Positions 12,591-63,195 of a stretch of DNA of 64,000 nucleotides are shown in pieces (positions within the stretch are counted from its first letter, which is position 1; each line of letters begins with the position of its first letter). Source of the stretch: a virus. Made by a program: the position numbers and the translations under genes. The stretch covers positions 79,702 to 143,701 of IMG/VR virus record IMGVR_UViG_3300037485_001282; one strand, written 5' to 3'. The notes under the pieces are model-generated. The model did no database searches. It was not told where the DNA came from and saw only the letters and a program-made list of their open reading frames with translations.

Positions 12591-12773
12591 AGTAACTATG
12601 TATTTTACCCATTATCCATTCTCAACCACTCAGTTACTTTAGTTACTTTAGTTAATTTTAATTTCATAAACTTATGATTGTAAATATGTAGTTACTTTAG
12701 TTACTATTAGTTACTCTGTAGTATGTTTAATTTTGGTTTCTTCTAATAGTAACTGAGCTACTATTAAGTAACT
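12591..12773. repeat. Cluster of eight AGT(A/T)ACT heptamers in a 500-bp non-coding gap (iteron-like)
   Basis: Copies at 12591, 12632, 12641, 12690, 12699, 12709, 12748, 12767 plus near matches. Confidence 0.75.
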
Positions 12774-13061
12774 ATACACTTTTCCTAAGTTGCTTTGCGA
12801 AATTTCATTATATATTATCTTTATGTAGTTGACTTGTTCTGCGTCTTATAACCATTAAAGATATTAGGTTATAGTCTGAGCTTGGTTGTGCTTACATTAC
12901 TGTAAGACAATATAGGAGGTTATTAGCCTAACTCTTCAGTTCACTAGGAAAGTCGATCCCGTGCCTATACCTTTGAATCCTTTTCTCTAAAGGAACTCCC
13001 TTTTCTGGGCTTAAAAATATTCACTAAACTTTATACTCCCTAGTGACTAAGAGTTTTATTT

Positions 13062-14156
13062 TTAATCTACACCAATCTCAATAGGTAAATTTGAATTATA
13101 TTTTTTATTAACATCAGTAAAAATTAAGGCTAACCATTTCCTTTCAGGTCCATAGAAAGAAGCGGTTGTAGTTCTAAAATAAGGAAATCTATTTCTCCAC
13201 TTTTTGAATAATTTAGTTCCTTGAGTCAAATATGCTTTTTGGTTAACTTCATTTAATAAATTCTTTTGTCCGTCTGATAAATGGAAACAATCAGCATCTA
13301 TAGCAAAATTTTTATATCCTTGATTTATACAATTTAAGCAAATATCAGCACCATAGAAGTGATAATGATCGAAAGTTACTTCATCAAATAAAATATTTAA
13401 ATTAGAACTACAAGCCAATACACATTCATCTAGTGTCTGAACCTCTTTATATGCTCCATTATTTTGGCGCATTATCTGAGCATAAGAAATTTCTTTTCCA
13501 TTATATGTAGTAGCCGTATTAGACAAATAGATAGCACCAGATTCAGTAAATACACCCATGTTGCTTTTACTAGTTCCAGCTATCCCAAGAAATCCTATCT
13601 TCATTCCAGTAGTTTCAAATTTAATAAAGTGACTATAAATTTTCTGAAGCCAATTAGTAGGAACTATTAGATCCTGATGGCAAAATAATAGATACTCAGA
13701 GTTACTTAAGGATCTACCGAAGTTAAGCATCTCAGCGGAACTATTAAATTCATTATTAAAATTAAAAATACTGATTATCTCAAAAGTTACGTTAGTCTCT
13801 TGGTTTCTTAAAGAATTTAAAAAGCCAATATATTGTTCCTTATTGTTGATAGGAACTATAATTGAAAATTTGGTTCTATTAAGTTTCTTAAGATACTTAG
13901 ATTTGCTAAAAGGAACTGAAATATCGATAGCATTTAGTTCATCTAAAGCAACTTGAAGTATCTTAGAATTTTCTTCGTTATTATTCATTTTATTAATTTC
14001 ATTTATTATATTCTCGTTTTTTATAATTTCTTTTAAACCATTATAATATGCAAGTTCAAAATTTCCAGTTATTTTTTCCCCAGGTCGAATAAAGTGCTTT
14101 TTCCCCTGATGAATTACAGAGATTCCTCGTTTTGTGATGTTTTTAAATATTGGCAT
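13062..14156 (-). CDS. GT-A fold (GT2-like) glycosyltransferase with N-terminal extension
   Basis: FSIIVP, YLLFCHQDL, LDECVL, FDHYHFYGADICL. Confidence 0.8.
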   Translation of the reverse strand: MPIFKNITKRGISVIHQGKKHFIRPGEKITGNFELAYYNGLKEIIKNENIINEINKMNNNEENSKILQVALDELNAIDISVPFSKSKYLKKLNRTKFSIIVPINNKEQYIGFLNSLRNQETNVTFEIISIFNFNNEFNSSAEMLNFGRSLSNSEYLLFCHQDLIVPTNWLQKIYSHFIKFETTGMKIGFLGIAGTSKSNMGVFTESGAIYLSNTATTYNGKEISYAQIMRQNNGAYKEVQTLDECVLACSSNLNILFDEVTFDHYHFYGADICLNCINQGYKNFAIDADCFHLSDGQKNLLNEVNQKAYLTQGTKLFKKWRNRFPYFRTTTASFYGPERKWLALIFTDVNKKYNSNLPIEIGVD

Positions 14157-14176
14157 TTTATTTCTAGAAAAATAGT

Positions 14177-15616
14177 TTAGATCGGAATTTCAAAAATCTT
14201 AAAAGGAAATTCGTTCTTCTTATAGTAGCTTATTCGATGCCATAAATGCTTTTCGGATAGATTTAGGTTCTCAGTTATATCATATAATTGAAGTTTATTT
14301 TTAGTAATATGCATTCTTAAACCACGACCAACCGATTGAAGAGTCTGGATTTTTGATTTTCCAGCAGCCCCGAAGATTACCACATGAAGCCTATTAATAG
14401 AAATTCCAGTAGAGAAAACACCAGTAGTGGCTACAGTAATTATTCCGCTTTCTTCATTCATCTTATGTCGAATACCAGATCTTAGATCCTTTTCAGTATC
14501 TCCACATATAAAGTTGCATTTACACCCAGATTCTTCTAAGATTTTTAAAAGAGTTTTACCGTGATCTACTCTTCTCACTAAAATTAAAATATTTTCGTTT
14601 TTATTTGCGTGTTTCTTCGCTATGTTACAAATAGCCAAGTTTCTTTTCTTATCATCTATCAAAAATTGCTTCTGATCAGCATACTCTTTTACATTAATAG
14701 CATCTAGTATCTCGTTCTTATACAGGAATTTAACTATAGAAATGTTAATATCCGAGATTTGCTTTAATTTGATTAGATCCTTAGCAAATACTTGGTCAAC
14801 TACTGGACCCAAAGCACCCTCAACTGACCAATAGTTACATTTATGGTCTGGCATAGTTCCTGTAGTTCCTATTTTGTACTCAGCGTTAATTGAATACTCA
14901 GAAACTTTTTTAATTTCATCCGATTTAACTCCATGACACTCATCAACAAACAAAGCAAAGCACTGTTCAAGTAAATCTTTTTTATCGTATATTGATTGCC
15001 AAGTACTTATAGTTACTTGAGTCTTAAAGTTCTTCTCTTTCCCATAAAAATTACCTAATATTTCCTCTTTCATCCCATAAGAAACTAAATCTTCCCTCAT
15101 CTGGGAAATTAAGTCAATCGTAGGGACTATAAGAATTATTTTCTTTCCAGGATTCTTATGAACTAGGTAGTTTATCATAAGGAAAATAGAAAGTGACTTA
15201 CCAGATCCTGTACAATGTTCTAAAATGGCTCTCCTCTTATAAAGAGCCTTCAAAGAACCTCTGATTTGATACTCTCTCGGTATCATCTCTGGATTAATGT
15301 TACTCTCAGTTATATCATTAAATTCCTTTATAAAAGAAACTTGATCTACTTTAGGAGCTATTAATTTAGGATCTATTTTAGGTTTATCTTCTTCATCTTT
15401 AAAGTAATTGATGATCTTTTGAAGATGACCCAGTTCAAATAGACCATTCCGCTTAACAAAAAGAATATTACCATCCCATTGCCCAGCTTTGTACTTCGGC
15501 ATAAACTGATAATTTTCAGCCTTAATGGAAAATCTTCTAATAATGCCACTCATTATTAAAGCATCATCAGATAATATTCGACCGTGAGTATTATTAACTT
15601 TTAAAATTTCTATCAT
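14177..15616 (-). CDS. uvsW: SF2 DNA helicase UvsW
   Basis: PREYQ, CTGSGKS, VDECH, GTTGT, FSTGISI, QSVGRGLR; N-terminal FMPKYKAGQWDG. Confidence 0.93.
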   Translation of the reverse strand: MIEILKVNNTHGRILSDDALIMSGIIRRFSIKAENYQFMPKYKAGQWDGNILFVKRNGLFELGHLQKIINYFKDEEDKPKIDPKLIAPKVDQVSFIKEFNDITESNINPEMIPREYQIRGSLKALYKRRAILEHCTGSGKSLSIFLMINYLVHKNPGKKIILIVPTIDLISQMREDLVSYGMKEEILGNFYGKEKNFKTQVTISTWQSIYDKKDLLEQCFALFVDECHGVKSDEIKKVSEYSINAEYKIGTTGTMPDHKCNYWSVEGALGPVVDQVFAKDLIKLKQISDINISIVKFLYKNEILDAINVKEYADQKQFLIDDKKRNLAICNIAKKHANKNENILILVRRVDHGKTLLKILEESGCKCNFICGDTEKDLRSGIRHKMNEESGIITVATTGVFSTGISINRLHVVIFGAAGKSKIQTLQSVGRGLRMHITKNKLQLYDITENLNLSEKHLWHRISYYKKNEFPFKIFEIPI

Positions 15617-16068
15617 TTCATTCCCAGCGTAAGTTTATGGTATTCACGCAGTTCCTTTAAACTATATATAGTCTTATGCAACGAATCGTACTTTTTAGTT
15701 AATAAATTAACTACGTCTTCCTGATAGTCAAAAGCAGTTTTAATCTTTACCCAGTTTTCATTTTTATAAACATATTGCTCTAAATCTCCTTTTTTAAGCG
15801 CCATTCCATTTTTAAACTTTAGATCATGAGTTATGTTACCTTTAATTTCTTCTTTTTTTAACGTTAGCGCCTTTAAAAGTAACTTCTCGGTACTCAATAA
15901 ACATAGACACTCACCTATTTCCTTAAAGTTCCTTAGATACTCTGATTTTAGATCCATCTCGTTAATAGGATGGTCATACATAGCAATATACTCCTGAGAT
16001 TTTAACTCGAAGTATGCGTCAATTTCATCTAAAGTTGATTCAGTAACTTGTAATAGACTCATTTCCAA
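15613..16068 (-). CDS. uvsY: UvsY-like recombination mediator
   Basis: Helical, 151 aa, adjacent to uvsW; LKKGDLEQYV...YQEDVV.LL motif. Confidence 0.6.
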   Translation of the reverse strand: MEMSLLQVTESTLDEIDAYFELKSQEYIAMYDHPINEMDLKSEYLRNFKEIGECLCLLSTEKLLLKALTLKKEEIKGNITHDLKFKNGMALKKGDLEQYVYKNENWVKIKTAFDYQEDVVNLLTKKYDSLHKTIYSLKELREYHKLTLGMK

Positions 16069-16532
16069 ACCCGATCAAAGTTCTGTAAGTAACTAACTAC
16101 CTTCAGTTTACTAGCAAGAGAATCAAGTAACTTATCAAAGTATTCACAAATTATTTCTTGGTAATCTTTGAAAATTTTTATTTTCTGATAGTTTATGTTG
16201 GTGTAGATCCATTCCTTTATTTCATATTCGCTACTAAATGTTCTACTAACTTCTTTTCCGTCTGGTCTAGTAACTATTACTCTCCCTTCCTTTGCCTTCG
16301 TGTATAGCGAAGTATAAAGTTTCTGGGTTTCTCTGGTTATTTTAACTAAAGCAGTTTTCGCTTTCATCCACTCAGATCTAACTGAATGGAGTTTATATAT
16401 CGTAGCGACATATTCTCCGCTGATTTCATTTTGGTCGATTATGAATAGACTCTCATATTTACTATGAAGGGCTTCTATTTTTTCCTCGAAAAACTTTTGT
16501 ATTTCCTCAAATGATTTACTTGATAAATTCAT
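16059..16532 (-). CDS. Second UvsY-like protein
   Basis: C-terminal half aligns with the downstream uvsY-like ORF (KIK...DYQE.........DSL). Confidence 0.5.
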   Translation of the reverse strand: MNLSSKSFEEIQKFFEEKIEALHSKYESLFIIDQNEISGEYVATIYKLHSVRSEWMKAKTALVKITRETQKLYTSLYTKAKEGRVIVTRPDGKEVSRTFSSEYEIKEWIYTNINYQKIKIFKDYQEIICEYFDKLLDSLASKLKVVSYLQNFDRVWK

Positions 16533-16575
16533 TAAGATTTCCTATAATATGATTATATCAATTATGGGGGAATTT

Positions 16576-16935
16576 ATGTCAAATATAAACTTAAAGCTAG
16601 AAGAAGAGATTTTTAAAGTTGAGAAAGAAAAGGTTGACCCTTTAGAGAAGAATAAAATAATGGAGATACTTAATCTTTTAAAAAACATTGATCATGACCT
16701 TAAACCGATATTAAACATCATTCAAAGGTTTATAGATGAATCGGATGATCAGACACTGAACACTCTAATGATTATTAAATTATTAAAATTCTACGGGATT
16801 AATAATAAGGACATTCTGACTGTCAGACAAAAAATGCTTCTGGTTGACAGGGAATTAGTAAAGGTTCCATATTTGAAGAAGAATCAAGTCGAATGTATTA
16901 ATATTTTATTAAAATCCTTTAATTTTGACTTTTAA
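16576..16935 (+). CDS. Hypothetical protein
   Basis: TTGATA-N17-TATAAT promoter (16520-16548) and GGGG RBS favour ATG 16576. Confidence 0.65.
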   Translation: MSNINLKLEEEIFKVEKEKVDPLEKNKIMEILNLLKNIDHDLKPILNIIQRFIDESDDQTLNTLMIIKLLKFYGINNKDILTVRQKMLLVDRELVKVPYLKKNQVECINILLKSFNFDF

Positions 16936-16980
16936 GTACTAATTTTTATAAATATATAATTGAAAGTTAATGAGAGGTCT

Positions 16981-17820
16981 ATGGAAAAATTCAAAGATTT
17001 TTACGCCACCAATGATGATAAATCACTTTTTAAAAAAATTGATGTGGTGCTATTTTTGGGTGATTATGATCCTATTACTAAAGACGAATACAGTAGAATA
17101 AAACAATTCATATCTGAAGTAGTTAGAAGCCCAACACATATTTCAAAATTTTCCGAAAAAGTTGACGTTGGGTTGTTAATAAACTGTGAAAAGATAGACG
17201 CTAAACTAGAAACCAGAAACAATAATGATTTAAACTTTGAAGAAAAAAACTATATAACAACTAAAATATTCGGTTTAAAGTGTTATCCAGTCAATTTAGA
17301 CAAGTTGTTTATTTCTAGTCTTTTAGAAACAGATGATAGCGGGGATACCGAAAAGTATATTTCGGAAATTACAGATCAATTAAAAAAATATTTTCATAAA
17401 CAAAACATACTTATAGTATTAAGTCACACAGATAGAAACTTTGAAGAGGTATTGTTCAGAATAAAAGAAATAGTTTCTTCAGATAACATCAATATTGACT
17501 TTTTGATTTTTAACCATAAACCAGAGATTAATGAGCTAGGTCTTCCATTTGATGGAAAACTAATTAAGTCTGTGGTTTTGTTGGACTATGAAAAACCAAA
17601 TCCAGAAGACTTAAAGGCATTTTCAGCTAAAAATGGACTATTAGATTACGTTGACGAAATACGAAAAATACATTTTAAATCACTAGGTAATAATTATTCT
17701 TTAATTTTTGAGTTGCTTTTCCCTGACTTGCAGTTTTATGTAAACGAAAAAAGTGATACTAAAGAATCTAATTGTAAATTTTTAATGGATTTACTACGCA
17801 ATATGTATCTGAAAAAGTGA
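16981..17820 (+). CDS. Hypothetical late protein, degenerate nucleotidyltransferase-like N-terminus
   Basis: TATAAATA at 16947-16954, GAGG RBS; VVLFLGDYDPITKDEY resembles G.F.P.T.GH without the His. Confidence 0.55.
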   Translation: MEKFKDFYATNDDKSLFKKIDVVLFLGDYDPITKDEYSRIKQFISEVVRSPTHISKFSEKVDVGLLINCEKIDAKLETRNNNDLNFEEKNYITTKIFGLKCYPVNLDKLFISSLLETDDSGDTEKYISEITDQLKKYFHKQNILIVLSHTDRNFEEVLFRIKEIVSSDNINIDFLIFNHKPEINELGLPFDGKLIKSVVLLDYEKPNPEDLKAFSAKNGLLDYVDEIRKIHFKSLGNNYSLIFELLFPDLQFYVNEKSDTKESNCKFLMDLLRNMYLKK

Positions 17821-17851
17821 TTAACTTTATAAATAACTATTAATTCAGGAG

Positions 17852-19390
17852 ATGCCAATGAAATGCCCCTTTTGCGGTTCCAATAAATTAGAAGAGACTG
17901 CTAACTTTAATGAGTTTTCTTGTAAACTATGTAATTGTGAGTTTAGAGACGAGAAACCAGGATACACGACATTCGAGGAAGGGAAATACGAAAACTTCTG
18001 CGAAAATGTTGCTGACTGTGTACTACAAGAAGCATCTGGCGGCATAACTCACGTTATAAACGCTATAGCAAAAGAAGCATCTCAGGCTGGAATCGAATAT
18101 ATTGACATTCCTATTGAAAGACTTCAGGATCTTTATGAGTCGGTTAAAAATGAATCTAGTTTGGGCATCATAGATTCGTTCGACCTCAAGTATATTAAAG
18201 AAGGAATGGATAAGTTTATCGTATTGGGTGAGAATATCCTTAAGAGAACCGATTTAGAAATCAATATGGAAAGATTTTCTTACTTGAAGGAAAACCAATT
18301 ATCCACTATTTCAGTTAAGCCACTTGGTCCTGTGGGCGGCGGAAAAAGAAAAGAAGTTATTGCTGGTGCTGTTGAAGAAGAAATAACTCCTGAAGTTAAT
18401 ATAGTCGATGATGAAACAATAGAAGCAATAGCAGATGATAGTTTAGATGAATTAAAATCAATGTATAGCGATTCTCCAGAAGGAACCTTTGATTTCGAGA
18501 TACAATATATCATTGAAGTTGCCAAAAAATATTGGCCAGAGATCGAAACATATTCTCCCGAAACTTTAGACAAAATAAAGACAGTTTTAGACCAAAAAGC
18601 AAATGCTGGATCAAGTCAAGATTTCACAGAAAATGAAGGTGACATTGATACATCTAACATGCATAATTGGGTGTCTATAATTGGTGATGTTGCGATGGAA
18701 GTAGAAGACAAAATTAGAAATCCAGACCATCAAATGACAGCAGATGAAGCAAGAGGTTTAATAAGACAAGAAGCTATTAAGATGGGGGTCAGTGAGAATA
18801 AGGTTGACGAGCAGTTTATTGATAGAGTTATTAAGTACATTAAATCTAGATCATATGAAGAGTTTGGTCCTGGTGAACTTGACTGGTTAGATGACCGAAG
18901 TATAAAAGAAACCCCAAATTATTCTGGAGACACAGACTTATCTCATTTATCATCAGTTGGGTCAGACGAAGATCCTAATTCACCAGAAGCCCAAGGAATA
19001 GAAGACGATTCTGAGTTTTACGATGATAAGATTGGTGGAGTTAGTGATTTTGCTTCTGATATTAAAGAACCAAAGAATCCAATTGATATTGATTCGGCTA
19101 TTACTATTATCAAATCAGAGGGACTACAAGACGATTTGGAGATTTATAAGCGTCTATTGGAACTAGTAGGTAATATTAGTGGCGAAGAAGCAGATAAAGT
19201 ATTAGATACTGTTAGAGGTATTTCTGTTGGAGTTCGAGAAGATAGTCTAACTGGAACTGGAATTGGAGACGGAACCAACGATATTGGCGCTAATCCAGAT
19301 GAGTTAGATATAGATGAATCCAATTTAATGGAAGCAGTCGAACATATAGTTTCTAAAGCAACTAAGGTAGAAGAACTAAGGGATCTATGA
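17852..19390 (+). CDS. Acidic late protein with N-terminal zinc ribbon, probable internal head protein
   Basis: CPFC..CKLC; D/E-rich; TATAAATA 17828-17835 and AGGAG RBS. Confidence 0.6.
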   Translation: MPMKCPFCGSNKLEETANFNEFSCKLCNCEFRDEKPGYTTFEEGKYENFCENVADCVLQEASGGITHVINAIAKEASQAGIEYIDIPIERLQDLYESVKNESSLGIIDSFDLKYIKEGMDKFIVLGENILKRTDLEINMERFSYLKENQLSTISVKPLGPVGGGKRKEVIAGAVEEEITPEVNIVDDETIEAIADDSLDELKSMYSDSPEGTFDFEIQYIIEVAKKYWPEIETYSPETLDKIKTVLDQKANAGSSQDFTENEGDIDTSNMHNWVSIIGDVAMEVEDKIRNPDHQMTADEARGLIRQEAIKMGVSENKVDEQFIDRVIKYIKSRSYEEFGPGELDWLDDRSIKETPNYSGDTDLSHLSSVGSDEDPNSPEAQGIEDDSEFYDDKIGGVSDFASDIKEPKNPIDIDSAITIIKSEGLQDDLEIYKRLLELVGNISGEEADKVLDTVRGISVGVREDSLTGTGIGDGTNDIGANPDELDIDESNLMEAVEHIVSKATKVEELRDL

Positions 19391-20928: not shown

Positions 20929-20962
20929 GTTCCCGATATAATAGGGACTCAAAGGAACTAAA

Positions 20963-21565
20963 ATGGATCTAGATTTAGAAGAAGCACCTGAAAGTCCCTA
21001 TAATAAGGAACCTAAGCCAAGAGTAAATTCTAAGAAAAAAGGCAATAGATGGGAACTTCAGTTAACGAAGATCCTTGGAGAAATCTTTGGAGATGAGTTC
21101 CGAAGAGTTCCTATGTCTGGTGCCTTTTGTGGTGGAATAAATAGATTTAGAAACCAATCAGTAAATCAAGATGCTAAAAATGCTCTAACAGGTGACTTAA
21201 TAGTTCCTACTTGGTTCCCTTTCTCAGTCGAAGCAAAGAACTATGAAGATTCTCCTAAGATGCATAATCTGTTATCTATAGGAGATAAAGATTTAGATAA
21301 GTGGATCGAACAGGCAAAAGAAGAATCTAAAATGTCCAAAAGAGACTGGATAGTTATTTTTAATATAACATCTAAACGAAGAAGCTTTGTCGCTGTAGAT
21401 TATAAAAAGTTCCTAGAAGTTACTAAAAGTTCCTTGAGTTCCTCTATAGTTTATAAAGATACTATAATATTTGATATGGAAGATTTTCTAAATAAAATGG
21501 CTATATATTACTTTCCAGAAAATTGGCGCGAAATAAGAGACTCCAATAAAATTAAAAATATTTAA
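20963..21565 (+). CDS. Hjc-type Holliday junction resolvase
   Basis: NSKKKGNRWE, RRVPMSGA, GDLIVP, VEAKNY. Confidence 0.8.
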   Translation: MDLDLEEAPESPYNKEPKPRVNSKKKGNRWELQLTKILGEIFGDEFRRVPMSGAFCGGINRFRNQSVNQDAKNALTGDLIVPTWFPFSVEAKNYEDSPKMHNLLSIGDKDLDKWIEQAKEESKMSKRDWIVIFNITSKRRSFVAVDYKKFLEVTKSSLSSSIVYKDTIIFDMEDFLNKMAIYYFPENWREIRDSNKIKNI

Positions 21566-54565: not shown

Positions 54566-54600
54566 AAAGATCCCCTGAGAGCAACTCTTAGGGGATTTTT
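54566..54600 (+). terminator. Intrinsic terminator closing the dut operon
   Basis: ATCCCCTGAGAG-caa-CTCTTAGGGGAT + T run. Confidence 0.85.
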
Positions 54601-54634
54601 GTTTTCTATAAATAAGGGCTTAGAGGAACTTAAA

Positions 54635-55510: not shown

Positions 55511-56769
55511 CTGACCTAAATGAGTTTAGAGAAAAAATTAGAAAAATTTTTGATAGAACCCCCAAGAAAATTGAGGACAATATCGGAAGTAGTGGAAATG
55601 GTCAAATATTGTTTAATGAAGAGGAACCAGAAGAAGCTGCTCCAGAAATTCCACCACCTGATGAATCCGAAGATCAAGCGACCGATGCTGGATCTACAGA
55701 ACAACCAGAAAAACCAGAGCAACCAGAGCAGCCAGAAGAAGCGCCCCCAACAGACGCAACACAAAATCCTGCTCCAGCACCAGTTCCAACAATAAATCAG
55801 AATCAAAATGATGCTCAGAAACTTAAGCAAATGTTTTCTGACTCAGGTGATTTAGTATATGATTATAGTTTAACTAATGAATTTAATCAAAGACTGTTTA
55901 AATTTAAATTTACTTATTCTGGAATAGATATTAATCAACTAATGACATCTAATGATGAGAGAACTGTTGGAGCATTAAAATCAGAATTAGAAAATCGTCT
56001 TTCACCAGAACAAAGATTCTACTATATTAATAAATGGAAATCTTTACGAAAGAAGTATCCAGATATTGAAAAAAGGGAAAAAAATATCATCATTCACAAT
56101 ACAAATATAATGATGATGGTTAATGATGATTTTGGTGAAGAAATACCCTTACCTGAAGAGAAGAAAAAAGAAGCGTATGAAAAAATAGATAAACTATTAA
56201 TTCAAAAATTTGGTGATGAATGGTTAGACAATCAAGAAGCTTTGGATTTTTTAAAGAATATTAAGATTAACTTTTCTAACGATAAGCCAGTTAGAACCAA
56301 TCTATTATCTATTAGCATAATGGATCAGAAGGATAAAGTTACTAATTCAGATTTAGTTCCTTTTAATAAAATCTATATAGACATTCCAGTTTCTATAAGG
56401 AACTTTTTAAAATCTAACGAAACTAATGAGTTTTATAATAGTAGTTCAATATTTCAGAATCTAATATCCGACTTTAGAAACTATTCGAAAATATCTGGGA
56501 GTATGGATTCGGTTATTAAAGGAACACCAACTCAGGAACCAACGGAACAAGACCCTAACGCAACTGGAGATACTTCGGCTGATGGGGCTTCTGCTGGCAT
56601 GGGTGGAGGTATGAGTGGTGGGGGTGATGTTGGTGGATCAACTGATATTGGCGGGGATATGACTAATCCAGATGAAACTGATGTAGGAGACGAAACAGCG
56701 CCAACGGATACGGAAGAAGCCCCAGTCGATGACACCGAAGCAGCCCCAGAAACTTCAGAAGAAACCTGA
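55507..56769 (+). CDS. Late protein with acidic Pro-rich disordered termini
   Basis: TATAAATA 55483-55490; PEQPEQPEE repeats; G/D/T-rich tail. Confidence 0.65.
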   Translation: MTDLNEFREKIRKIFDRTPKKIEDNIGSSGNGQILFNEEEPEEAAPEIPPPDESEDQATDAGSTEQPEKPEQPEQPEEAPPTDATQNPAPAPVPTINQNQNDAQKLKQMFSDSGDLVYDYSLTNEFNQRLFKFKFTYSGIDINQLMTSNDERTVGALKSELENRLSPEQRFYYINKWKSLRKKYPDIEKREKNIIIHNTNIMMMVNDDFGEEIPLPEEKKKEAYEKIDKLLIQKFGDEWLDNQEALDFLKNIKINFSNDKPVRTNLLSISIMDQKDKVTNSDLVPFNKIYIDIPVSIRNFLKSNETNEFYNSSSIFQNLISDFRNYSKISGSMDSVIKGTPTQEPTEQDPNATGDTSADGASAGMGGGMSGGGDVGGSTDIGGDMTNPDETDVGDETAPTDTEEAPVDDTEAAPETSEET

Positions 56770-56796
56770 TATAATTGGATTTAGAAAGGCGATAAT

Positions 56797-57075
56797 ATGA
56801 CCAATAAATTAAATCCAGTTACACAGAAAATAGTAGAAAACTGTATAAACGAGGCTCTCCAAGAATATGTAAACGAAACTAAGTTGTTTACGGCAGACAC
56901 TTTACATTATATTAGAACAAAGATAACAACGCTCGTTCACGAAAGACTAGGTAAAGAAGAAATTAACAACATTGATGTTGGATTAGATCTATCAAAAGTA
57001 GAAGATATTAAATTTTTCTTTCAAGTAAATGTACCATCTGACAAAGCCGAAGAACACATTTTAAATAAAGATTGA
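56797..57075 (+). CDS. Hypothetical protein
   Basis: AAAGG RBS, operon position. Confidence 0.6.
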   Translation: MTNKLNPVTQKIVENCINEALQEYVNETKLFTADTLHYIRTKITTLVHERLGKEEINNIDVGLDLSKVEDIKFFFQVNVPSDKAEEHILNKD

Positions 57076-57082
57076 ATTAACG

Positions 57083-59062
57083 ATGCCCTTATATCGAAAA
57101 CAAAAGCCAAAAGTATTTAAAGAAGAAGGAGAGATTGTAGGAAATAACAATGCTCCACTGGGGTATCGTAATCCAGTTTCTGAACGGTCAATCGCTTTTG
57201 TTAACGGCACCCCTTCACCAGATGATAATGTTTTTTTGTTATCGGCATTAGAATCAGTAATGGGTTCTACTAATATAGACGGAACGAATCTACCAGTTTT
57301 GAACACAGAAACAACAGTAGAGAATTACATAAAACCGATATTTTTAGGAAGTAATGGACAGCCCTCTGAAGAGTTTCTTTATACCAACCCAACCGCTAAT
57401 CTGAATTTGACAAAAAACGCAGATTGTGTTACTACTTTTATGTTTGCCAATATTCAAGCAAAAAAGTCAGAGAGAGGATTTAAAGAACAATTACAAAAAA
57501 CCGATCCGAATATACCAAACTCTGTTACTAATAAAACACCTTCAGCTACATCAGAACAAAAATATCAACTAATGTTTATAGAACAAGGAGATGAGTTTAA
57601 TTCTAGGATAAGAATAAATTCATTCGATATTATTATTGATAATTTAGGTAAAGGGATTAATACAATTTTATCTTCTCCGTTGCAGTTAGATAATTGGTAT
57701 GATGGAAGATGGGTAGATTATAATATAGGAAATAATGTAACTATTGGCGCTACTAATGATCCAGTAAAGGAAAGAAAAGTTGGAGATAGATTAAATTGGT
57801 CATTTGGAAGTGTGTTTTTAGCAAAAACCTTTGGATCTATAACAAGAAACACAGAAGAAACCTTTAGGGAATTAAAATATACATTTGATAATGGAAAAAT
57901 AACATTAAGCGATTGGGATTTTTCAGTTGAAATTTCGCCTACTGAATTTTCAAGTAGATATGGTGAAAAAGTAAGTATAGTATATGGCAAAAAAGAAGAG
58001 ACGGAAATATTATCCAAAGACCAAATTTCAAGAGGAGTAGTTGGTCGTAAAATTTTTACGTTCCTAATGAATTCTCTTGAAGAAGGGGAGAATATTAGAA
58101 TAGAGGAAGCACATGGTGGAATTAAAATCGGCGTTGATTTTAATTATAATAAGATAACAAACTGGTATTCCCCATCTTCATCTAGTTCAGCAGATAATAT
58201 AATAAATCTTTCCCCAGGAAATACGTTGCATTATGATTTTGGAGATGGATTAGCGAATATTAGATTTAATGGAAGAAACGGTCAAGTTTCGTATGTTTCT
58301 ATTGGTGGAGACACAATACCAGTATCAACTGTAAACGGATTTTTTGTTTGGAACTACGGTACAATTAACGCATATACTTTTAAAATATTTAGAGAATGCC
58401 ATAACTTTAAATCATCATTGGGATATACATATCAGATATGTTTCGTTGGTTATCCTAGAATTATATTTTCGTTAGATATTTTATCTAGAAGTTCAAGTTC
58501 ATCATCATCGGAATCTTATTCTTCTAGTAGTTCGTTGTCTTCGGATTCGTCTGTAGCCGATGAATCATCGTCATCGTCCTTTGATAAAAATCATTCTTCA
58601 ACATCAAGTTCATCTTTGAGCTTATTGAGCTTATTAAGTGTATCATCTTTGTCTTCAAAATCATCACAATCAAGATCAAGTGATTCTTCGTCTTCATCTA
58701 ATTCTTCAAGTAGTTCATCATCGAAATCCTCCGTGTCTCTGTCATCTAATTCTTCAAGCAGCACGTCTTCTGTATCTGATGTATCTTCTAGTTCAAGATC
58801 CAACAATGACACTTCTTCACAGAGTGAGTCTTCGCTTTCAGATAATTCTAGTTCTTCTAGTAGCTCTAGTTCTTCAAATTCATCTTCGTCATCTTCCGAA
58901 TCGAATAGTTCAAATAGTTCTAGTTCATCTAGTTCCTCCAGTTCTTCTAATTCTTCTAGTTCAAGCTCTTCGAGTAGCAATTCTTCGAGTAGTTCAAGCT
59001 CCACGTCTTCTAATTCATCTAGTTCATCTCATTCTATTTCGTCTTCCTCCCAATCACCATAA
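57083..59062 (+). CDS. Putative virion surface/fibre protein with ~190-aa serine-rich C-terminus
   Basis: Poly-Ser tract ~58490-59050 using mixed TCN/AGY codons. Confidence 0.7.
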   Translation: MPLYRKQKPKVFKEEGEIVGNNNAPLGYRNPVSERSIAFVNGTPSPDDNVFLLSALESVMGSTNIDGTNLPVLNTETTVENYIKPIFLGSNGQPSEEFLYTNPTANLNLTKNADCVTTFMFANIQAKKSERGFKEQLQKTDPNIPNSVTNKTPSATSEQKYQLMFIEQGDEFNSRIRINSFDIIIDNLGKGINTILSSPLQLDNWYDGRWVDYNIGNNVTIGATNDPVKERKVGDRLNWSFGSVFLAKTFGSITRNTEETFRELKYTFDNGKITLSDWDFSVEISPTEFSSRYGEKVSIVYGKKEETEILSKDQISRGVVGRKIFTFLMNSLEEGENIRIEEAHGGIKIGVDFNYNKITNWYSPSSSSSADNIINLSPGNTLHYDFGDGLANIRFNGRNGQVSYVSIGGDTIPVSTVNGFFVWNYGTINAYTFKIFRECHNFKSSLGYTYQICFVGYPRIIFSLDILSRSSSSSSSESYSSSSSLSSDSSVADESSSSSFDKNHSSTSSSSLSLLSLLSVSSLSSKSSQSRSSDSSSSSNSSSSSSSKSSVSLSSNSSSSTSSVSDVSSSSRSNNDTSSQSESSLSDNSSSSSSSSSSNSSSSSSESNSSNSSSSSSSSSSSNSSSSSSSSSNSSSSSSSTSSNSSSSSHSISSSSQSP

Positions 59063-59065
59063 TTT

Positions 59066-61654
59066 ATGCCAAATAATGTAGTAAAAACATATGAAGTTGG
59101 AAACTTAGGCTCAACCCCCACAAATTTTTTTGTGGGGAAGACGCATCTTTCGTCTAACGAAAAACTACCAACTAATAACAACCAATCAGTGTTTTTATTT
59201 GCGTCATTAACTGCTGGAAAAAACGTAAGAATAGACCAAGCAACAGAAAAAGAACCACAAATATTCATAGACGCAAAATTCTATGACTTTAAACCGTATG
59301 GTTATTTAGTTAATTACTCAGCTAATAAGAATCTAGAACAACTACAAGAAAATTTTTCAAATCCAAATGTTAATTTAAAAACAATTTTAGACTCAGTAAG
59401 TTTTTTTAACTCAGACTTAGATATTAAGTTTAAAACACTATCAGCGAACAATGGAATTACCGTTGAAGATATTAACGATGAGTTAGTTTTAAAAGCAACA
59501 GAATATAAGATTCAAAATAAAACCGACGCAAAATCAATAAAATTATATACAAATACTTCAAAAGATACAGATGGAAACTTTAACTTTAATGTAAATAAAT
59601 TAATTGAAGGTAATTGTATTAAGTTTAGACAAATCCTAGAATTCGCTTGGAGCGATATAGTGTCATCGTCTAGTTCCTCAAGTTACTTTTTAACATCTAG
59701 TTCGAGTTCATCTAGTTCATCGGAATCGTCTAACTCAGAATCAACTAGTTCAGCTTCTGATACTTCTTCGTCATCAGATAGTTCACAGTCTTTAGATTGT
59801 TGTGGAACTAGTAAAATTAGCGCATATTTACTGACATTGGAATCTAGTTTTAATAATCCAAGTAATGTTTTTAACTTTACATATACGGATAATTGCTTTT
59901 ATTCGGAAATAAACCCAAGATCGTTCGTAGAGAAAAACTTCAGTGGAAACAGTACAGTTGAATCAAAAGAAATCAACTTTCCATTAAATATTTACTCACC
60001 AAGTAATGATACTTTTTTGTGGGTTTATGATAATTTCGTTGCGTTGGATGCTAAAAGAATAAATATTAAGTACTCACTAATTAAAGATAATAGTTACTTG
60101 GATGGCGTCTGCTTAACTTCTATTAAATATAAAAAATCAGACAATAGTTTATATAGTCACGAATTGAGAACACCAAGTGACCATGTTTATACCGCATATA
60201 ATAATATTACAATAGAGATCCCCATACATAATTTTAGCCAAGACGGGTATCCAGTCTCTTATAGTGACTTAGATACAATAGAAAATGTAGTTACTTCTAA
60301 TGTTAATCTTATAATAGATACTGAGTTCAATAATAACTTTAACTCATATAATCTGAACTCATCTGCTTTTAGCTTACAGTCAATATCTACTCTAAGTAAC
60401 TCTTATAAACTGATTTATTCGTTTGATGAAGGATCCAATACAGGAAATAGTGGAATCGTTGAAATTATAGTTACTAAATGTCCAGCGTTAAGTAACTCCC
60501 AGGAACTAGTAGGAACTTTAATCATATCTACTCAAAGTTGCTGTAATGAACAAACAGGCGAAAATCCTCTCATTAGACAATTTAGTTCCGAAAGCTCAAA
60601 TTCTTCTAGTAGCTCAAATAGTTCCTCAAGTTCCTCTAGTAACTCTAGCTCCTCAAGTTCATCTAATTCTAGTTCATCTAGTTCATCAAGTAACTCAAGT
60701 TCATCCAATAGTTCATCTAGTAGCTCATCAAGAGACTCATGGCCTCCTATAGCTGATGTGTGGACCTATATGACATCTTCATCATATGCGGCGATTGGTA
60801 ACGGAAATGGTAATAGATCATACGCTTATGCTGGTGAATTATATTCTGCGACATCAAAAGAAATTATTAAATATGATCCGATTTCAAATTTGGTGTCTAA
60901 AGTATCTGACTATCCGTTAAGGGCAACAAGATCTATAGGATACACAGTATTTTTAGATAATAAAATTTATTGCGGTTCATATACGTATGGATGTTCTCAA
61001 CCATATTATAGTGAGTTCTATTCATATGATCTTCTTTCTGGTGTTTGGACTAGATTAGCAGATAGACCAGGAGCATCTTATTGTCAAGCAGTAGCTACTA
61101 CCGATAATAATATAATAATGGTTATCGGTGAAGATTGGGCTTATCAGTGTTTTGGTGATGGCTGTTCTGATATGTGTCCTTATTTAACAAAAACGATTCA
61201 TTATTATAATCCAAATACTGGTGTTTGGTATGATGGTAATGAGTTTCCAGATTTATATGATTGGTATTATTTACATACATTAACAATAGATAATACTATA
61301 TATGGATTAGCTTCACATAGAAGATGTGGAAGAAGTTACTGTACTAATAATCCCGCTAAATTATATAAATTTCAAAACGGTAATTGGTCTTATTTTACTG
61401 ACGCTCCCCTATTTTGGGATTACTATAATTTAACGTGGGTAAATTATTACGGAACAATTTATATGGGCGCACAAACAGGAGGCGCTGTAGTTGGTAGAAA
61501 CTATGAGCGATGGTATATTTTTAATCCAATAGATATAACGTGGACCGAAAAACAGTATATTCCTGGTGGAGCTTGGCAATCTGCAAGTGGAGCAGATACT
61601 TTAGGGAGATACATATATGGATTCTGGGGTTGGGATGTTTGGCGGTACGGTTAA
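59066..61654 (+). CDS. Putative fibre/receptor-binding protein with poly-Ser linkers and C-terminal Kelch-like beta-propeller
   Basis: Ser tracts ~59663-59790 and ~60583-60730; repeats Y.YD...GVWT, YYNPNTGVWY, IFNPIDITWT. Confidence 0.7.
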   Translation: MPNNVVKTYEVGNLGSTPTNFFVGKTHLSSNEKLPTNNNQSVFLFASLTAGKNVRIDQATEKEPQIFIDAKFYDFKPYGYLVNYSANKNLEQLQENFSNPNVNLKTILDSVSFFNSDLDIKFKTLSANNGITVEDINDELVLKATEYKIQNKTDAKSIKLYTNTSKDTDGNFNFNVNKLIEGNCIKFRQILEFAWSDIVSSSSSSSYFLTSSSSSSSSSESSNSESTSSASDTSSSSDSSQSLDCCGTSKISAYLLTLESSFNNPSNVFNFTYTDNCFYSEINPRSFVEKNFSGNSTVESKEINFPLNIYSPSNDTFLWVYDNFVALDAKRINIKYSLIKDNSYLDGVCLTSIKYKKSDNSLYSHELRTPSDHVYTAYNNITIEIPIHNFSQDGYPVSYSDLDTIENVVTSNVNLIIDTEFNNNFNSYNLNSSAFSLQSISTLSNSYKLIYSFDEGSNTGNSGIVEIIVTKCPALSNSQELVGTLIISTQSCCNEQTGENPLIRQFSSESSNSSSSSNSSSSSSSNSSSSSSSNSSSSSSSSNSSSSNSSSSSSSRDSWPPIADVWTYMTSSSYAAIGNGNGNRSYAYAGELYSATSKEIIKYDPISNLVSKVSDYPLRATRSIGYTVFLDNKIYCGSYTYGCSQPYYSEFYSYDLLSGVWTRLADRPGASYCQAVATTDNNIIMVIGEDWAYQCFGDGCSDMCPYLTKTIHYYNPNTGVWYDGNEFPDLYDWYYLHTLTIDNTIYGLASHRRCGRSYCTNNPAKLYKFQNGNWSYFTDAPLFWDYYNLTWVNYYGTIYMGAQTGGAVVGRNYERWYIFNPIDITWTEKQYIPGGAWQSASGADTLGRYIYGFWGWDVWRYG

Positions 61655-61666
61655 TAAAGGAACTTT

Positions 61667-62575
61667 ATGGAACTATCAGATGATGATATAAGAAACTTAG
61701 TTACTAATAGCAACTTGAATTCAAATGAAGTTACTATTGATTTTATTAATAAGAGAATCTACGTTGATTCTATTAGAGATAATATTGAAGAGACTAAGCA
61801 GTTTATGATAGATAATAATTTTAGATATGTTGGAGAAACTATTCAGATTAAATACGACCACGAACATTGTGGTTGCTTAGAGAACAATGAAGTAACTTCA
61901 GTAGCTCAAGATCCAGAACCATGTTATATTCTTCAGTCTTCAAGTTCCCAATCATCAAATAATGTAGAATATTGCACAGACGTAGTATCTTTTAAGACTT
62001 ATTATGCTAATGAATTTACTAAGACAACAGGAGCAATAGAAACATTAACTTTAGATTCTACTTGTGAGGAGGGAAACTGTTCTTGGAAAAATGAACCAGA
62101 TCCTATTTTCGTTCAAGTATTTGACGCAACCAATCAAAGAATTTACTTTAAGCAAATAAATGAACTATCTCAGTTAAAAGTAGAGAAAGTAAATAACCAA
62201 GATAAGTATATTTTTAGAAAATTTAAAGAAATTTCATTTTTCAATACAACTACCGCTTCTCCTTCTGGTAACTATGAGGTTATCCTATCTGATTGTGCCT
62301 TATTGAGCCAAACAGAACCAGAGAGAAAAGATATTGAAATTATAGTACTTGAGAACTTTAAAGAAGACTTAAATAACTTAATATATAATTTCCCCAGAGT
62401 AAATGATTCAGACTTTAATACATATGCTCACATAGACCATGCCGCAAATAATTGCAATATGGGATCCACAGGAGACGCTGAAGGTAACTATACAGAAAAT
62501 CTGACCCTTTACAATGACTGGAGAAATATTTTATTAAGAAATGCAAACTGGACAGTCACCAAATTTACTTTTTAA
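61667..62575 (+). CDS. Hypothetical structural protein related to upstream fibre-like ORFs
   Basis: Short Ser tract, FKT/FKQ/FRK beta repeats, AAAGGA RBS. Confidence 0.55.
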   Translation: MELSDDDIRNLVTNSNLNSNEVTIDFINKRIYVDSIRDNIEETKQFMIDNNFRYVGETIQIKYDHEHCGCLENNEVTSVAQDPEPCYILQSSSSQSSNNVEYCTDVVSFKTYYANEFTKTTGAIETLTLDSTCEEGNCSWKNEPDPIFVQVFDATNQRIYFKQINELSQLKVEKVNNQDKYIFRKFKEISFFNTTTASPSGNYEVILSDCALLSQTEPERKDIEIIVLENFKEDLNNLIYNFPRVNDSDFNTYAHIDHAANNCNMGSTGDAEGNYTENLTLYNDWRNILLRNANWTVTKFTF

Positions 62576-62592
62576 TTTGCTATAATAAAGGG

Positions 62593-63195
62593 ATGAACGG
62601 TTTTTTTAGTAAATTTAAGTATCCAGAAGTTCCTAAAGTTCCTAAGAGCGACCATGGATGGTTCCCTAAGTGGAATGAGGAACTTTTAGTTCCTTTAGTG
62701 GCTAATAAGTTACTTATAGTCGAACTAGGTTCTTGGTTAGGAAAATCTACTAGGTACTGGTTAAATAACTCAAGAGCAAGAGTGATCTGTATAGATACTT
62801 GGTTAGGATCTATAGAACATCAAGGTAGAGAAGATGTTAAGGATAAATTACCTACTCTTTATGAGACTTTTTTAGTAAATCAAAGTGACTTTAAGGAACG
62901 AGTTTATCCACTAAGAGCATCTACGATTAAAGGGATGCTTGAAGTGGCTAAAAGTTCCTTGGAGCCTGATTTCATTTATATAGACGCTGATCATTCATAT
63001 GAAGCGGTTTTTAGTGACTTAACAGTTGCTTATAGTTTATTTCCAGATGCTTTGATTTGTGGTGACGATTGGAACTGGAAGAATAGGAACCAAAATAAAC
63101 GAAAGACTGTCCAGGAAGCAGTTAAAGAATTTTGTAGAGTAAATAAAAAGGAATATGTAAATAACCATTGGGCTTGGTGCCTTAAAGGAAATTAA
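62593..63195 (+). CDS. Class I SAM-dependent methyltransferase (Methyltransf_24-like)
   Basis: VELGSWLGKS, CIDTW.GS, DFIYIDADHSYE.V..DL, ICGDDW. Confidence 0.9.
   Translation: MNGFFSKFKYPEVPKVPKSDHGWFPKWNEELLVPLVANKLLIVELGSWLGKSTRYWLNNSRARVICIDTWLGSIEHQGREDVKDKLPTLYETFLVNQSDFKERVYPLRASTIKGMLEVAKSSLEPDFIYIDADHSYEAVFSDLTVAYSLFPDALICGDDWNWKNRNQNKRKTVQEAVKEFCRVNKKEYVNNHWAWCLKGN

Follow-up and report, generated by a model that had tools for sequence, protein, structure and literature searches.

Short DNA boxes repeated once per helical turn are known from several systems with cooperative protein binding, including P2 Cox, 186 Apl, lambda Xis and the pho boxes of OmpR/PhoB, which are 7-bp repeats with an A/T spacer and a period of 10–11 bp. 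Each of these systems has a recognisable winged-helix protein and only a few sites, which lie at att sites or promoters. Ribbon-helix-helix repressors also bind arrays of boxes: MetJ binds metboxes (AGACGTCT, 8-bp period) and the omega repressor binds heptads. Protein p6 of phi29 coats the genome by periodic binding and takes part in its organisation and replication and in the switching of transcription. Genome-wide over-represented words include uptake sequences (USS/DUS), Chi and KOPS, which are exact 8–12-mers and/or strand-polar. T-even phages distinguish their own DNA by cytosine modification.

T4-type phages carry promoter-early stem-loop (PeSL) cassettes, intergenic elements of about 50–100 bp found in hyperplastic regions. 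They consist of a lineage-specific promoter and a terminator stem, are associated with indels and have been proposed to act as recombination joints (Arbiol et al., 2010, PMC2839356; Comeau et al., 2014, PMC4122927). PeSLs are the nearest described counterpart of the signal reported here, for which no T4-like equivalent was found within the literature searched, as the original prediction had stated. The source is an uncultured T4-like phage (G000), represented by a 144-kb record that is about 79% complete; coordinates refer to the window, a 64-kb stretch of this record.

The AG-N3-CT word and its enrichment

The original prediction described the heptamer AGTTMCT as a genome-wide word in helically phased arrays, and every one of its coordinates is an exact match. 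The window contains 161 copies of the heptamer (22.9 ± 4.3 expected from dinucleotide shuffles of the window) and the whole record 329, all of which are counted among AG-N3-CT sites. It is, thus, over-represented as predicted, but it is only the tip of a broader unit, the degenerate palindrome AG-N3-CT, which is the top-ranked gapped dinucleotide pair of the genome (1325 sites versus 490 expected, z = 38). These sites are dispersed throughout the window (1..64000) in both orientations, at about 9 per kb and in all three frames. The excess in coding sequences survives synonymous-codon shuffling (1219 versus 617 ± 22; ratio 1.99, z = 32), with enrichment in each reading frame. The preferred words are AGGAACT/AGTTCCT (92 and 58 copies within coding sequences, versus 21 and 13 after the same shuffle) and AGTAACT/AGTTACT (64 and 69, versus 20 and 26). 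The null was calibrated on 15 control loci, T4 among them, which gave ratios of 0.80–1.45 and at most two pairs 10 bp apart each; the corresponding values for this genome are 1.99 and 62.

Chance, codon usage or peptide repeats could be invoked, given that many T4-like phages have a mild 1.2-fold baseline and that in many other viral contigs collagen-like (NNA-GGW-ACT)n coding repeats place the heptamer every 9 nt. Three clusters in the window are indeed explained by protein sequence, because they are in-frame coding repeats with a 9-bp spacing on the + strand, encoding poly-serine (59672..59687, units at 59672/59681; 60620–60644, units at 60620/60629/60638) or VPKVPK (62628–62643, units at 62628/62637); they are not part of the phenomenon. 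Only these clusters combine a constant frame with spacings that are multiples of three. The bulk excess occurs in all frames and at 10, 11, 20, 31 and 32 bp, and the z of 32 was obtained under a null that preserves codons and stays flat across the control loci, so this explanation is refuted for the bulk of the sites and has almost no likelihood overall. The claim that protein sequence cannot explain the pattern, thus, stands for the bulk excess and falls for these three clusters.

On the sense strand, centres and their reverse complements are enriched to similar degrees (GAA 4.1/TTC 4.6, TAA 3.2/TTA 2.6, ATA 2.45/TAT 2.42; r = 0.53, above the 99.9th permutation percentile), which places the signal on double-stranded DNA. 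The two strands carry 269 and 304 copies of the word, with no switch along the genome and no strand polarity of the Chi/KOPS type along the chromosome; the slight sense-strand excess is due to use of the word in ribosome-binding sites. Centres that make restriction-type palindromes (GGNCC, AGCT, GTAC) are avoided. The excess is not accounted for by protein sequence or codon usage and acts at the DNA level.

Helical phasing and arrays

The predicted spacing peak of about 10 bp is present. Distances between AGTTMCT copies peak at 9–10, 19–20 and 30–31 bp, and those between neighbouring AG-N3-CT sites favour 10–11, 20–21, 31–32 and 40–43 bp, with a best period of 10.4–10.9 bp, or about one helical turn, and a decay after three to four turns. 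In coding sequences, 63 pairs are 10 bp apart (versus 4.2 expected), 33 are 11 bp apart (versus 2.6) and 29 are 20 bp apart (versus 2.3); chains of at least three units number 29, versus 7.5 in codon-shuffled genomes. Such spacing is as expected for reading on one face of the duplex. Neighbours at 10 or 11 bp have the same orientation in 15 cases and the opposite one in six (p = 0.08).

Several arrays lie within genes; those given here with both end coordinates are on the + strand. A four-unit array with spacings of 10, 10 and 9 bp (21408..21443) is out of frame in a PDDEXK_15 endonuclease gene (20963–21565), where it encodes KFLEVTKSSLSS. Three units at exact 10-bp spacing (60491..60517) are likewise out of frame (SNSQELVGT), in a gene for an 862-aa Ser-rich/Kelch fibre-like protein, and four units (AGGAACT, AGTTCCT, AGTGGCT, AGTTACT) follow one another at 10-bp spacing (62678..62714) in a Methyltransf_24-domain gene. 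In the gene for a gp15-like tail sheath stabiliser, substitutions in place created a pair 11 bp apart (36979..36996), as comparison with L001, a related phage, shows (SSY/VVT versus YGY/IVT). A Rad50-like gene contains a chain of at least three units (9266..9293), and further gene-body chains of this length start at 13690, 25703, 31592, 35795, 44495, 46162 and 54654. The arrays are not duplications, because phased neighbours have only AG and CT in common (seven pairs with a common centre, versus 4.6 expected) and originated by substitution in place.

Frequent target sites for a symmetric enzyme acting on both strands of the duplex are a further possibility; the candidates are a primase (the sites forming a map of starts), a type II topoisomerase, a junction resolvase, the terminase nuclease or a methyl- or glycosyltransferase. 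An interrupted palindrome of the 2+3+2 form is what restriction/modification-type enzymes or dimeric nucleases typically recognise, the avoidance of true restriction palindromes and the strongest enrichment being in replication and recombination genes are consistent with this idea, and the phage encodes a glycosyltransferase and the Methyltransf_24 protein (domain matches). However, the sites are clustered (gap CV 1.31–1.53, versus 1.0 under random placement) rather than regularly spaced on each strand, which speaks against a priming map, and one-turn phasing is not expected of catalytic sites. No DNA methyltransferase family (PF01555, PF02086, PF00145) was matched in the 79%-complete record, and CCGG and GATATC are avoided to an extreme degree, which suggests unmodified DNA. 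An enzyme target of this kind is, on balance, improbable.

Distribution over genes and among relatives

About 90% of the AG-N3-CT sites lie in gene bodies, at a uniform density along genes, as do 72 of the 86 phased pairs. The signal is genome-wide, as predicted, in that it is dispersed throughout gene bodies, but it is uneven: replication and recombination genes are the most enriched and the conserved core genes for ligase, UvsW and polymerase carry sites, whereas no enrichment is seen in the genes for capsid, sheath, tube and TnpB. Enrichment also differs among genes of equal age, consistent with selection.

In a relative from another metagenome (L201), AG-N3-CT is generally enriched, ranking 1 of 2040, but arrays are missing; closer relatives of the structural module have little enrichment. 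No positional conservation of sites was found with the relatives. The sites are gains in number that are specific to the lineage, not positions preserved between phages, and the signature is heritable, as its rank in L201 shows.

A mutational drive might produce such gains, if Vsr-like very-short-patch (VSP) repair, gene conversion or a similar sequence-specific activity kept turning near-matches into the word and only strong codon selection, in virion genes with high expression, held it back. Several features would fit: the pattern shows strand symmetry, does not depend on the reading frame and varies by degrees within the clade, the gains show no conservation of position, and enrichment is missing from the most highly expressed genes and from the mobile TnpB gene. 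Nevertheless, several structural genes that are just as old, but only moderately expressed, also lack enrichment, a process acting on single sites gives no helical phasing of neighbours, and the two- to fourfold magnitude is far above VSP effects in E. coli. Neither Vsr nor a DNA methyltransferase was found in the 79%-complete record. We consider this drive unlikely.

Ribosome-binding sites and intergenic cassettes

The ribosome-binding site of this phage reads AAAGGAACT-N3-ATG and uses 25 of the 182 AGGAACT copies (about 14%). This heptamer peaks at −10, as found for about 25 genes, and several start codons have an array immediately in front of them. In RNA terms, the consensus is AAAGGAACU-N3-AUG, and AGGAACU might serve as an extended Shine-Dalgarno sequence or translational enhancer, its complement building regulatory hairpins in mRNAs; some terminator stems are built from the word and its complement. 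This RNA-level explanation fails as a general one and is very unlikely, given the 86% or so of AGGAACT copies located elsewhere, the almost complete lack of AGTAACT at ribosome-binding positions, the equal sense and antisense enrichment, the uniform density along genes and the 10.5-bp period, a property of the duplex. L201, moreover, has AGGAG-type ribosome-binding sites, yet retains the general enrichment.

Two intergenic clusters are lineage-specific terminator/promoter cassettes. The first (12598..12766, − strand) is noncoding, specific to G000 and bounded by the direct repeat TAGTTACT. On the − strand, two AGTTACT units and three AGTAACT units (12715–12690) precede a promoter-like match of the sigma70 type, TTTACA-18-TAAAAT (12684–12655), with no adjacent stem-loop; ATTAACT and two AGTAACT units (12660–12632) and an AGTTACT (12597–12591) follow. 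The arrays around this promoter look like an operator. The homologous gap in L201 lacks the segment, and a late promoter comes directly after TAGTTACT. The second cluster lies, as predicted, between gp16 and gp17, the upstream ORF being a TerS candidate by synteny only, but it proved to be a G000-specific insert of a terminator hairpin and a late promoter. Units 2–4 of a four-unit array (37889..37926, + strand) form a predicted terminator hairpin, GGAACUACCA-GUAACU-UGGUAGUUCC, followed by a U-run (−19.1 kcal/mol, z = −3.0), and an AGTTCCT-at-AGTAACT pair (37955..37983, + strand) is directly upstream of the late promoter TATAAATA (37976–37983) of the large terminase gene. About 125 bp of this gap are missing in L001 and L002. 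Three further units (54537..54564, + strand) lie at the end of an ORF (54104–54541), ahead of a GC hairpin, a T-run and a TATAAATA promoter.

Unrelated early ORFs have in common a 25–40-nt junction composed of a heptamer array, a ribosome-binding site and ATGA, and, therefore, end in the C-terminal peptides VTESILKELE or RNSKELK. The words might, then, be building blocks of lineage-specific gene-boundary cassettes (ribosome-binding site, terminator, promoter), acting as short homologies for modular shuffling, with the intragenic copies as a by-product. The G000-specific array blocks, one of them flanked by a direct repeat, and the common junctions favour this explanation, as does the precedent of PeSLs as lineage-specific, indel-associated promoter/stem-loop motifs (PMC4122927). 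It has little likelihood, however, given that most sites are spread evenly within gene bodies, including those of conserved core genes, and that the longest recurring words are 12–16 nt (20 nt in two adjacent junctions), no repeat exceeding 16–20 nt. It also leaves unexplained the 10.5-bp phasing of units with unrelated centres and the general enrichment in L201, which lacks the cassettes.

A putative reader of the double helix

What the words indicate is a protein reading duplex DNA, and not a property of the phage proteins or mRNAs. We tentatively favour the explanation that AG-N3-CT sites are double-stranded recognition sites for a putative DNA-binding protein bound side by side on one helix face, to which we attach somewhat less than an even chance. 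The reader would be a sequence-specific protein of the phage lineage or of the host, the units of which, probably dimers, would sit on the twofold-symmetric AG...CT frame and cooperate along one face of the helix. Cooperative binding of this kind would select for many weak sites and local arrays, the density of which may mark or organise the phage chromosome. These abundant words may later have found further uses in ribosome-binding sites, in the stems of terminators and in operator-like arrays that flank promoters within junction cassettes specific to the lineage. Some observations count against a binding protein: about 1300 sites with four specified bases are unusually many and degenerate for a specific binder, promoters are mostly free of the motif, site positions are not conserved with the relatives, and neighbours show a weak preference of orientation.

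No reader protein was found with Pfam and PHROGs among about 60 proteins of the 79%-complete record, nor were HU-, H-NS- or p6-like proteins or an OmpR-type Trans_reg_C domain found in it. The proposal of a DNA-level code read on one helix face, thus, holds for the DNA level, the strand symmetry and the spacing of about one turn, but lacks a reader protein, and no link to the small terminase, segregation or replication emerged.

A bolder version, which we regard as doubtful, is that a dense, phased AG-N3-CT code labels the unmodified chromosome of the lineage as 'self' and that a dedicated protein reads it, so as to coat or organise phage DNA specifically. If this is true, the code would let phage DNA be told apart from that of the host, be it for protection, for switching transcription or for packaging, sequence density would do what cytosine modification does in T-even phages, and a genome-scale protein–DNA recognition code would be written through coding sequence.

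Comparison with described systems

The two intergenic array blocks and the common ORF junctions behave like PeSLs, and share their association with indels, both blocks being missing in relatives (L201; L001/L002). The unit differs, being a 7-bp word with four specified bases that is mostly intragenic and helically phased, and G000 has no long repeat family comparable to the multi-copy intergenic repeats of tens of bp. As to the PeSL composite of an early promoter of the sigma70 type with a stem-loop next to it, the 12.6-kb cassette has a promoter-like match and no stem-loop beside it, and the TerS–TerL cassette combines a stem-loop with a late, not an early, promoter.

The short boxes, the W-rich 3–4-bp spacer and the 10–11-bp period, which would line up bound proteins on one helix face, recall the Cox/Apl/Xis and OmpR/PhoB systems, and the arrays flanking the 12.6-kb promoter resemble such an operator; the sites of G000 are, however, located mostly in gene bodies instead of being confined to promoters or att sites, and no winged-helix domain of the OmpR type was found in the 79%-complete record. 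MetJ and omega also use short palindromic or orientation-tolerant boxes at which dimers cooperate, and the metbox begins with AG and ends with CT, but their boxes are contiguous, with a 7–8-bp period (10.5 bp in G000), and limited to operators. The function of phi29 p6 is one that dense, weak, phased sites would serve, although p6 recognises bendable DNA at a period of 24 bp, not a defined word. A restriction-modification or methyltransferase target would call for a cognate DNA methyltransferase, of which no match to the three families above was found in the 79%-complete record. Like USS/DUS, Chi and KOPS, the word is far above expectation and lies inside genes regardless of frame, and inverted pairs are reused as terminators, as for DUS; unlike them, it is a degenerate, helically phased palindrome without polarity, in a lytic phage. 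Overall, the genes of this phage contain about two times as many copies of the word as its protein sequences and codon usage would permit, and neighbouring copies are often separated by one helical turn.

Enrichment of a degenerate palindrome

The original prediction concerned a heptamer, AGTTMCT (M = A or C), repeated at helical spacing throughout the genome; all the coordinates listed for it are exact matches. The window contains 161 copies of this word, against 22.9 ± 4.3 in dinucleotide shuffles, and the whole contig contains 329. Relative to a codon null, in which every protein and the codon usage of each gene are held fixed, the four strand/word combinations are enriched 2.6- to 4.5-fold inside genes (observed/null 92/21, 58/13, 64/20 and 69/26). 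AGTTMCT is only the most conspicuous part of a larger family, AG-N3-CT. Among 3,072 gapped dinucleotide pairs, this word stands far above all others (1325 vs 490, z = 38), and AG/CT at the neighbouring spacings N0–N2 and N4 stands at about 0.5. Nearly all of its 64 possible centres are enriched, with GAA/TTC at the top (about 4.3x against the codon null and 8x against a Markov model); the depleted centres are those creating restriction-type palindromes, namely GGNCC (0 copies), AGCT and GTAC. Coding sequences hold 1219 sites, against 617 ± 22 under the codon null, with frames 0, 1 and 2 at 2.9x, 2.8x and 1.6x. The null is sound, because 15 control loci, including T4, give ratios of 0.80–1.45, with at most two 10-bp pairs each; on this calibrated null, the phage under study (G000) has a ratio of 1.99 (z = 32) and 62 pairs at 10 bp.

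Several simple origins were rejected. The word has no strand polarity along the genome, which rules out a Chi/KOPS-type polar word, and an evenly spaced priming map is rejected, since the sites cluster (gap CV 1.3–1.5). No long dispersed repeat or MITE-like element was found, the longest common words being of 12–16 nt.

The phage and its record

The 64-kb window lies at the right-hand end of one 143,701-bp IMG/VR virus contig (32.8% GC; about 79% complete by CheckV). The whole analysis covers this single incomplete metagenomic contig, without known host or close relatives, and the gene calls are crude longest-ORF calls. G000 is a distant T4-like myovirus, with a large terminase 33–37% identical to cyanophage and Pseudomonas phage homologues and a T4-like gene set (tail sheath, gp15, UvsW, UvsY, RNase H and a Rad50-like protein). 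Its late promoters are of the T4 type (TATAAATA), and its early promoters are of the canonical sigma70 form (TTGACA-17-TATAAT). No near-identical record was found in the phage collection, and the closest relatives in metagenome and IMG/VR scans had only 50–61% TerL or 51% UvsW identity. Restriction-type palindromes are extremely avoided throughout the contig (observed vs expected: CCGG 1 vs about 95; GATATC 0 vs 50; GGCGCC 0 vs 17; AGCGCT 0 vs 11; AGGNCCT 0 vs 14; AGCT at a ratio of 0.57), which suggests that the DNA of this phage is unmodified and pressed by several host restriction systems.

Other features of the record include a 168-aa protein with a TnsA-like endonuclease N-terminal domain, encoded between RNase H and the late genes (window 23678–24184, minus strand), and an early-region nucleotide-metabolism cluster (genome 2952–8761 of the whole record, locus L440) encoding ATP-grasp R2K, nucleoside 2-deoxyribosyltransferase-like and IMPDH/GMP-reductase-like proteins. 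At the extreme end of the contig (window 63880–63999, genome 143581–143701), a sequence of at least 32 nt, TGTGTCTGGAAACCTCCAAACACAAATTAATA, is directly repeated with copies 87 bp apart, perhaps as a tandem repeat or as a feature of the assembly end.

Helical phasing and the duplex-DNA signal

The expected peak at about 10 bp is present: coding sequences hold 63 AG-N3-CT pairs at 10 bp, against 4.2 under the null, followed by 33 (2.6) at 11 bp, 29 (2.3) at 20 bp, 20 (1.7) at 31 bp and 18 (1.2) at 32 bp. A density-corrected periodogram peaks at 10.4–10.9 bp, and the signal weakens beyond three to four turns. Chains of at least three phased units number 29, against 7.5 in codon-shuffled genomes, the latter being essentially the intergenic chains, which were left unshuffled; the longest two, at genome 10671–10730 and 1236–1290, consist of six and five units respectively. 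Gene bodies contain 72 of the 86 phased pairs. The claim that protein sequence cannot explain the spacing survives for the bulk of the signal, which exceeds the codon null, but not for three 9-bp clusters that are in-frame coding repeats and do not belong to the phenomenon: poly-Ser at window 59672/59681 and 60620–60638, and EVPKVPK at window 62628/62637.

Phased neighbours rarely share a centre (7 identical, 4.6 expected), and the array in gp15 aligns, without gaps, opposite different codons of the orthologue in L001, a structural-module relative. The arrays are, therefore, not the product of local duplication or insertion, and the phased feature is the AG...CT frame. Since no periodic A/T envelope surrounds the sites, a general bending or wrapping (curvature) code is also ruled out. 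On the sense strand only, centres are enriched in step with their reverse complements (r = 0.53, p = 0.002, beyond the 99.9th percentile of permutations). Combined with the period of 10.5 bp, this assigns the signal to duplex DNA, not mRNA; an mRNA signal would give no reason for reverse-complement centres to match on the sense strand. An enzyme target (a modification, topoisomerase, resolvase or terminase site) would account for the palindrome and for the requirement for both strands, but it leaves the phasing unexplained and is considered unlikely. No DNA methyltransferase or Vsr family was found in the approximately 79%-complete record, which counts against a methyltransferase target or a Vsr drive.

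Variation among genes and relatives

The word was described as genome-wide, but its enrichment differs greatly from gene to gene. High ratios are found for ligase (2.8), UvsW (2.8), the Rad50-like gene (2.5), gp15 (3.3), TerL (2.4) and a glycosyltransferase (4.0), and low ones for capsid (1.27), sheath (1.01), tube (1.2/0.44) and TnpB (0.83); early genes as a class reach 2.17 and late genes 1.64. The non-enriched virion genes are not recent imports, because their synonymous divergence from relatives equals that of enriched genes (identical-codon fraction 0.5–0.6 everywhere). Either the selection does not act on them or, at high expression, selection on codons overrides it. The gene densest in the word (48 sites, 25 per kb; genome 39105–41048, loci L441/L442) encodes a product that reads as a LigA-type NAD-dependent DNA ligase, unlike the ATP-dependent ligase of T4, its translation having a KLDG adenylation motif, a Cys4 zinc finger and a C-terminal BRCT-like end.

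When orthologous coding sequences are aligned, 67 sites in G000 compare with 31 in L001, and 87 with 56 in L002, a second structural-module relative. Many of the G000 sites lie over identical amino acids (e.g. GGA-GCA-ACT in G000 vs GGT-GCA-ACC). The original prediction looked to conservation in relatives, which was low: only 12.8% of G000 sites are common to L001/L002 (median for other XY-N3-ZW words, 22.5%). Because G000 sites are so rarely shared, while the sites of L001 and L002 are retained in G000 at the usual rate, G000 has gained sites, with their number favoured and not their position.

The enrichment ratio follows a clade gradient, from 1.23 in L001 and 1.31 in L002 to 1.67 in L201 (a replication-module relative from another metagenome) and about 2.0 in G000; more distant T4-likes are flat (L202 0.76, L008 0.80). 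In L201, AG-N3-CT ranks top among 2040 gapped pairs, but ribosome-binding sites are of the AGGAG type, AGGAACT is not preferred and phased pairs are few. There are thus two layers, a clade-level enrichment of AG-N3-CT and a G000-specific layer of preferred words, arrays and recruitment to regulatory uses. A repair or conversion drive would account for both this gradient and the strand symmetry; it is nevertheless a doubtful explanation, as the phasing is left unexplained and genes for such a drive were not found in the record.

Pattern scans of public collections with four-unit and three-unit arrays did not reveal the same phased arrays among the matches listed. The strongest viral matches listed in the three-unit scan have a strict 9/18/27-nt spacing in patches of collagen-like (NNA-GGW-ACT)n repeats, and the listed bacterial matches are plain tandem repeats. 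In L275, L261, L303, L288, L272 and at least about 20 other IMG/VR loci, collagen-like (NNA-GGA/GGT-ACT)n repeats fill patches of kilobase size; they yield AGGAACT/AGGTACT at this strict spacing and are a trap for motif scans. At least four Thermoanaerobaculia MAGs (Acidobacteriota; L322, L327, L330 and L349), which are high-GC and unrelated to the phage, have multiple tandem arrays of a 10-bp unit, AGTTCCTCGG.

Local uses of the word

The ribosome-binding site consensus of G000 is AAAGGAACT-N3-ATG, with AGGAACT peaking at -10; this use accounts for only 25 of the 182 AGGAACT copies and none of the AGTAACT copies. In the early region, unrelated ORFs have a common 25–40-nt junction of phased units, ribosome-binding site and overlapping ATGA. 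This 3' cassette, with its overlapping stop/start, is the reason why otherwise unrelated small early ORFs (genome 5644–7788, L440) end in identical peptides, VTESILKELE or RNSKELK. Between the TerS-like gene and TerL, G000 has about 125 bp more than L001 and L002, in which the upstream gene runs into the TerL ribosome-binding site; the extra block contains a hairpin (-19 kcal/mol, z = -3) in which the word pairs with its complement, along with a U-run and a TATAAATA promoter. The ORF upstream (window 37326–37871), which had been labelled gp16, is a putative small terminase by synteny and by 45–47% identity to its L001/L002 counterparts only, with no Pfam or PHROGs match.

At window 12598–12766, the homologous gap of L201 aligns over about 330 columns to TAGTTACTTAA and then passes directly to the late promoter, whereas G000 has an extra block of about 170–185 bp with TAGTTACT on both sides. 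The block contains a sigma70-like promoter (TTTACA-18-TAAAAT) flanked by AGTAACT units, three immediately upstream and another three running downstream from the -10 box, and looks like both an operator and an inserted regulatory cassette. G000 and L201 also have in common a noncoding stretch of about 280 nt (window 12790–13061, minus strand; L201:7650–7960), which separates the glycosyltransferase gene from a 745-aa gene. It has conserved blocks including TCTTAGTCA, TTTTAAGCC and a hairpin TCCTTT...AAAGGA, had no Rfam match (nor was any family found in the window), and is a candidate regulatory RNA or origin.

All four local uses resemble the promoter-early stem-loop (PeSL) cassettes of T4-type phages, lineage-specific promoter/stem-loop units tied to indels and modular shuffling (PMC4122927). 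The bulk of the sites requires another explanation, because about 90% lie inside genes, the excess hardly changes from one end of a gene to the other (1.93x in the first 60 nt, 1.99x in the body and 1.86x in the last 60 nt) and promoter regions mostly lack the word. A promoter -35 or ECF-like box (GGAAC) is ruled out by the same scarcity and by the absence of a positional link to TATAAT or TATAAATA. A vocabulary of recombination joints would fit the cassettes well but gene-body sites poorly, and seems improbable.

A putative reader protein

The excess over the codon null, the strand symmetry and the 10.5-bp period bear out the idea of a DNA-level code; its basis also includes phasing of the AG/CT frame between units whose centres are unrelated, the clustering of sites and the heritability of the trait. 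The best-backed reading, tentative and at somewhat short of an even chance, takes AG-N3-CT as a duplex-DNA recognition element for a putative protein that would bind adjacent units on one helix face. A protein reading the word would probably be a dimer, because the AG...CT frame is 2-fold, and would bind adjacent units cooperatively; its function may be chromosome-wide marking or organization, plus local operator roles. Pfam and PHROGs searches of about 60 proteins yielded no DNA-binding candidate, and a separate search for HU/IHF, H-NS and OmpR-type (winged-helix) families found no known nucleoid or winged-helix reader in the approximately 79%-complete record. The recombination, drive and enzyme-target explanations retain substantial weight.

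If a protein does read this code, a virus can write a further message, genome-wide and at the level of DNA, over almost all of its genes, paying measurably for it in the choice of synonymous codons and even of amino acids, and the word would provide a handle on the discrimination of self from host DNA in those T4-like phages that lack base modification. Both the word and the 10.5-bp rule for its spacing are precise enough for direct testing with synthetic DNA and cell-free phage proteins, with no cultured host. Such a private signal distorts k-mer-based host prediction and codon-based analyses of these phages, and one lineage-specific vocabulary can build ribosome-binding sites, terminators and promoter cassettes.

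Comparison with known systems

The literature yielded no account of the word or of phased genome-wide motifs in phages, and nothing relevant beyond PeSLs, which are the nearest feature; the view that T4-like phages have no described equivalent thus stands within the reach of these literature searches.

One-per-turn cooperative arrays are formed by the boxes of Cox/Apl/Xis and by pho boxes, MetJ metboxes are boxes set in arrays, and phi29 p6 is a coating protein. The 7-bp box of G000, with its W-rich 3-bp spacer and 10–11-bp period, resembles the first group, and its palindromic AG...CT boxes set in arrays resemble metboxes; its genome-wide density recalls coating proteins such as p6, and also uptake-type words. 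G000 nevertheless lacks some defining features of each of these systems, and likewise of PeSLs, and the feature is therefore set apart as apparently new: a degenerate palindrome, helically phased and spread through the genes of a whole T4-like phage genome.
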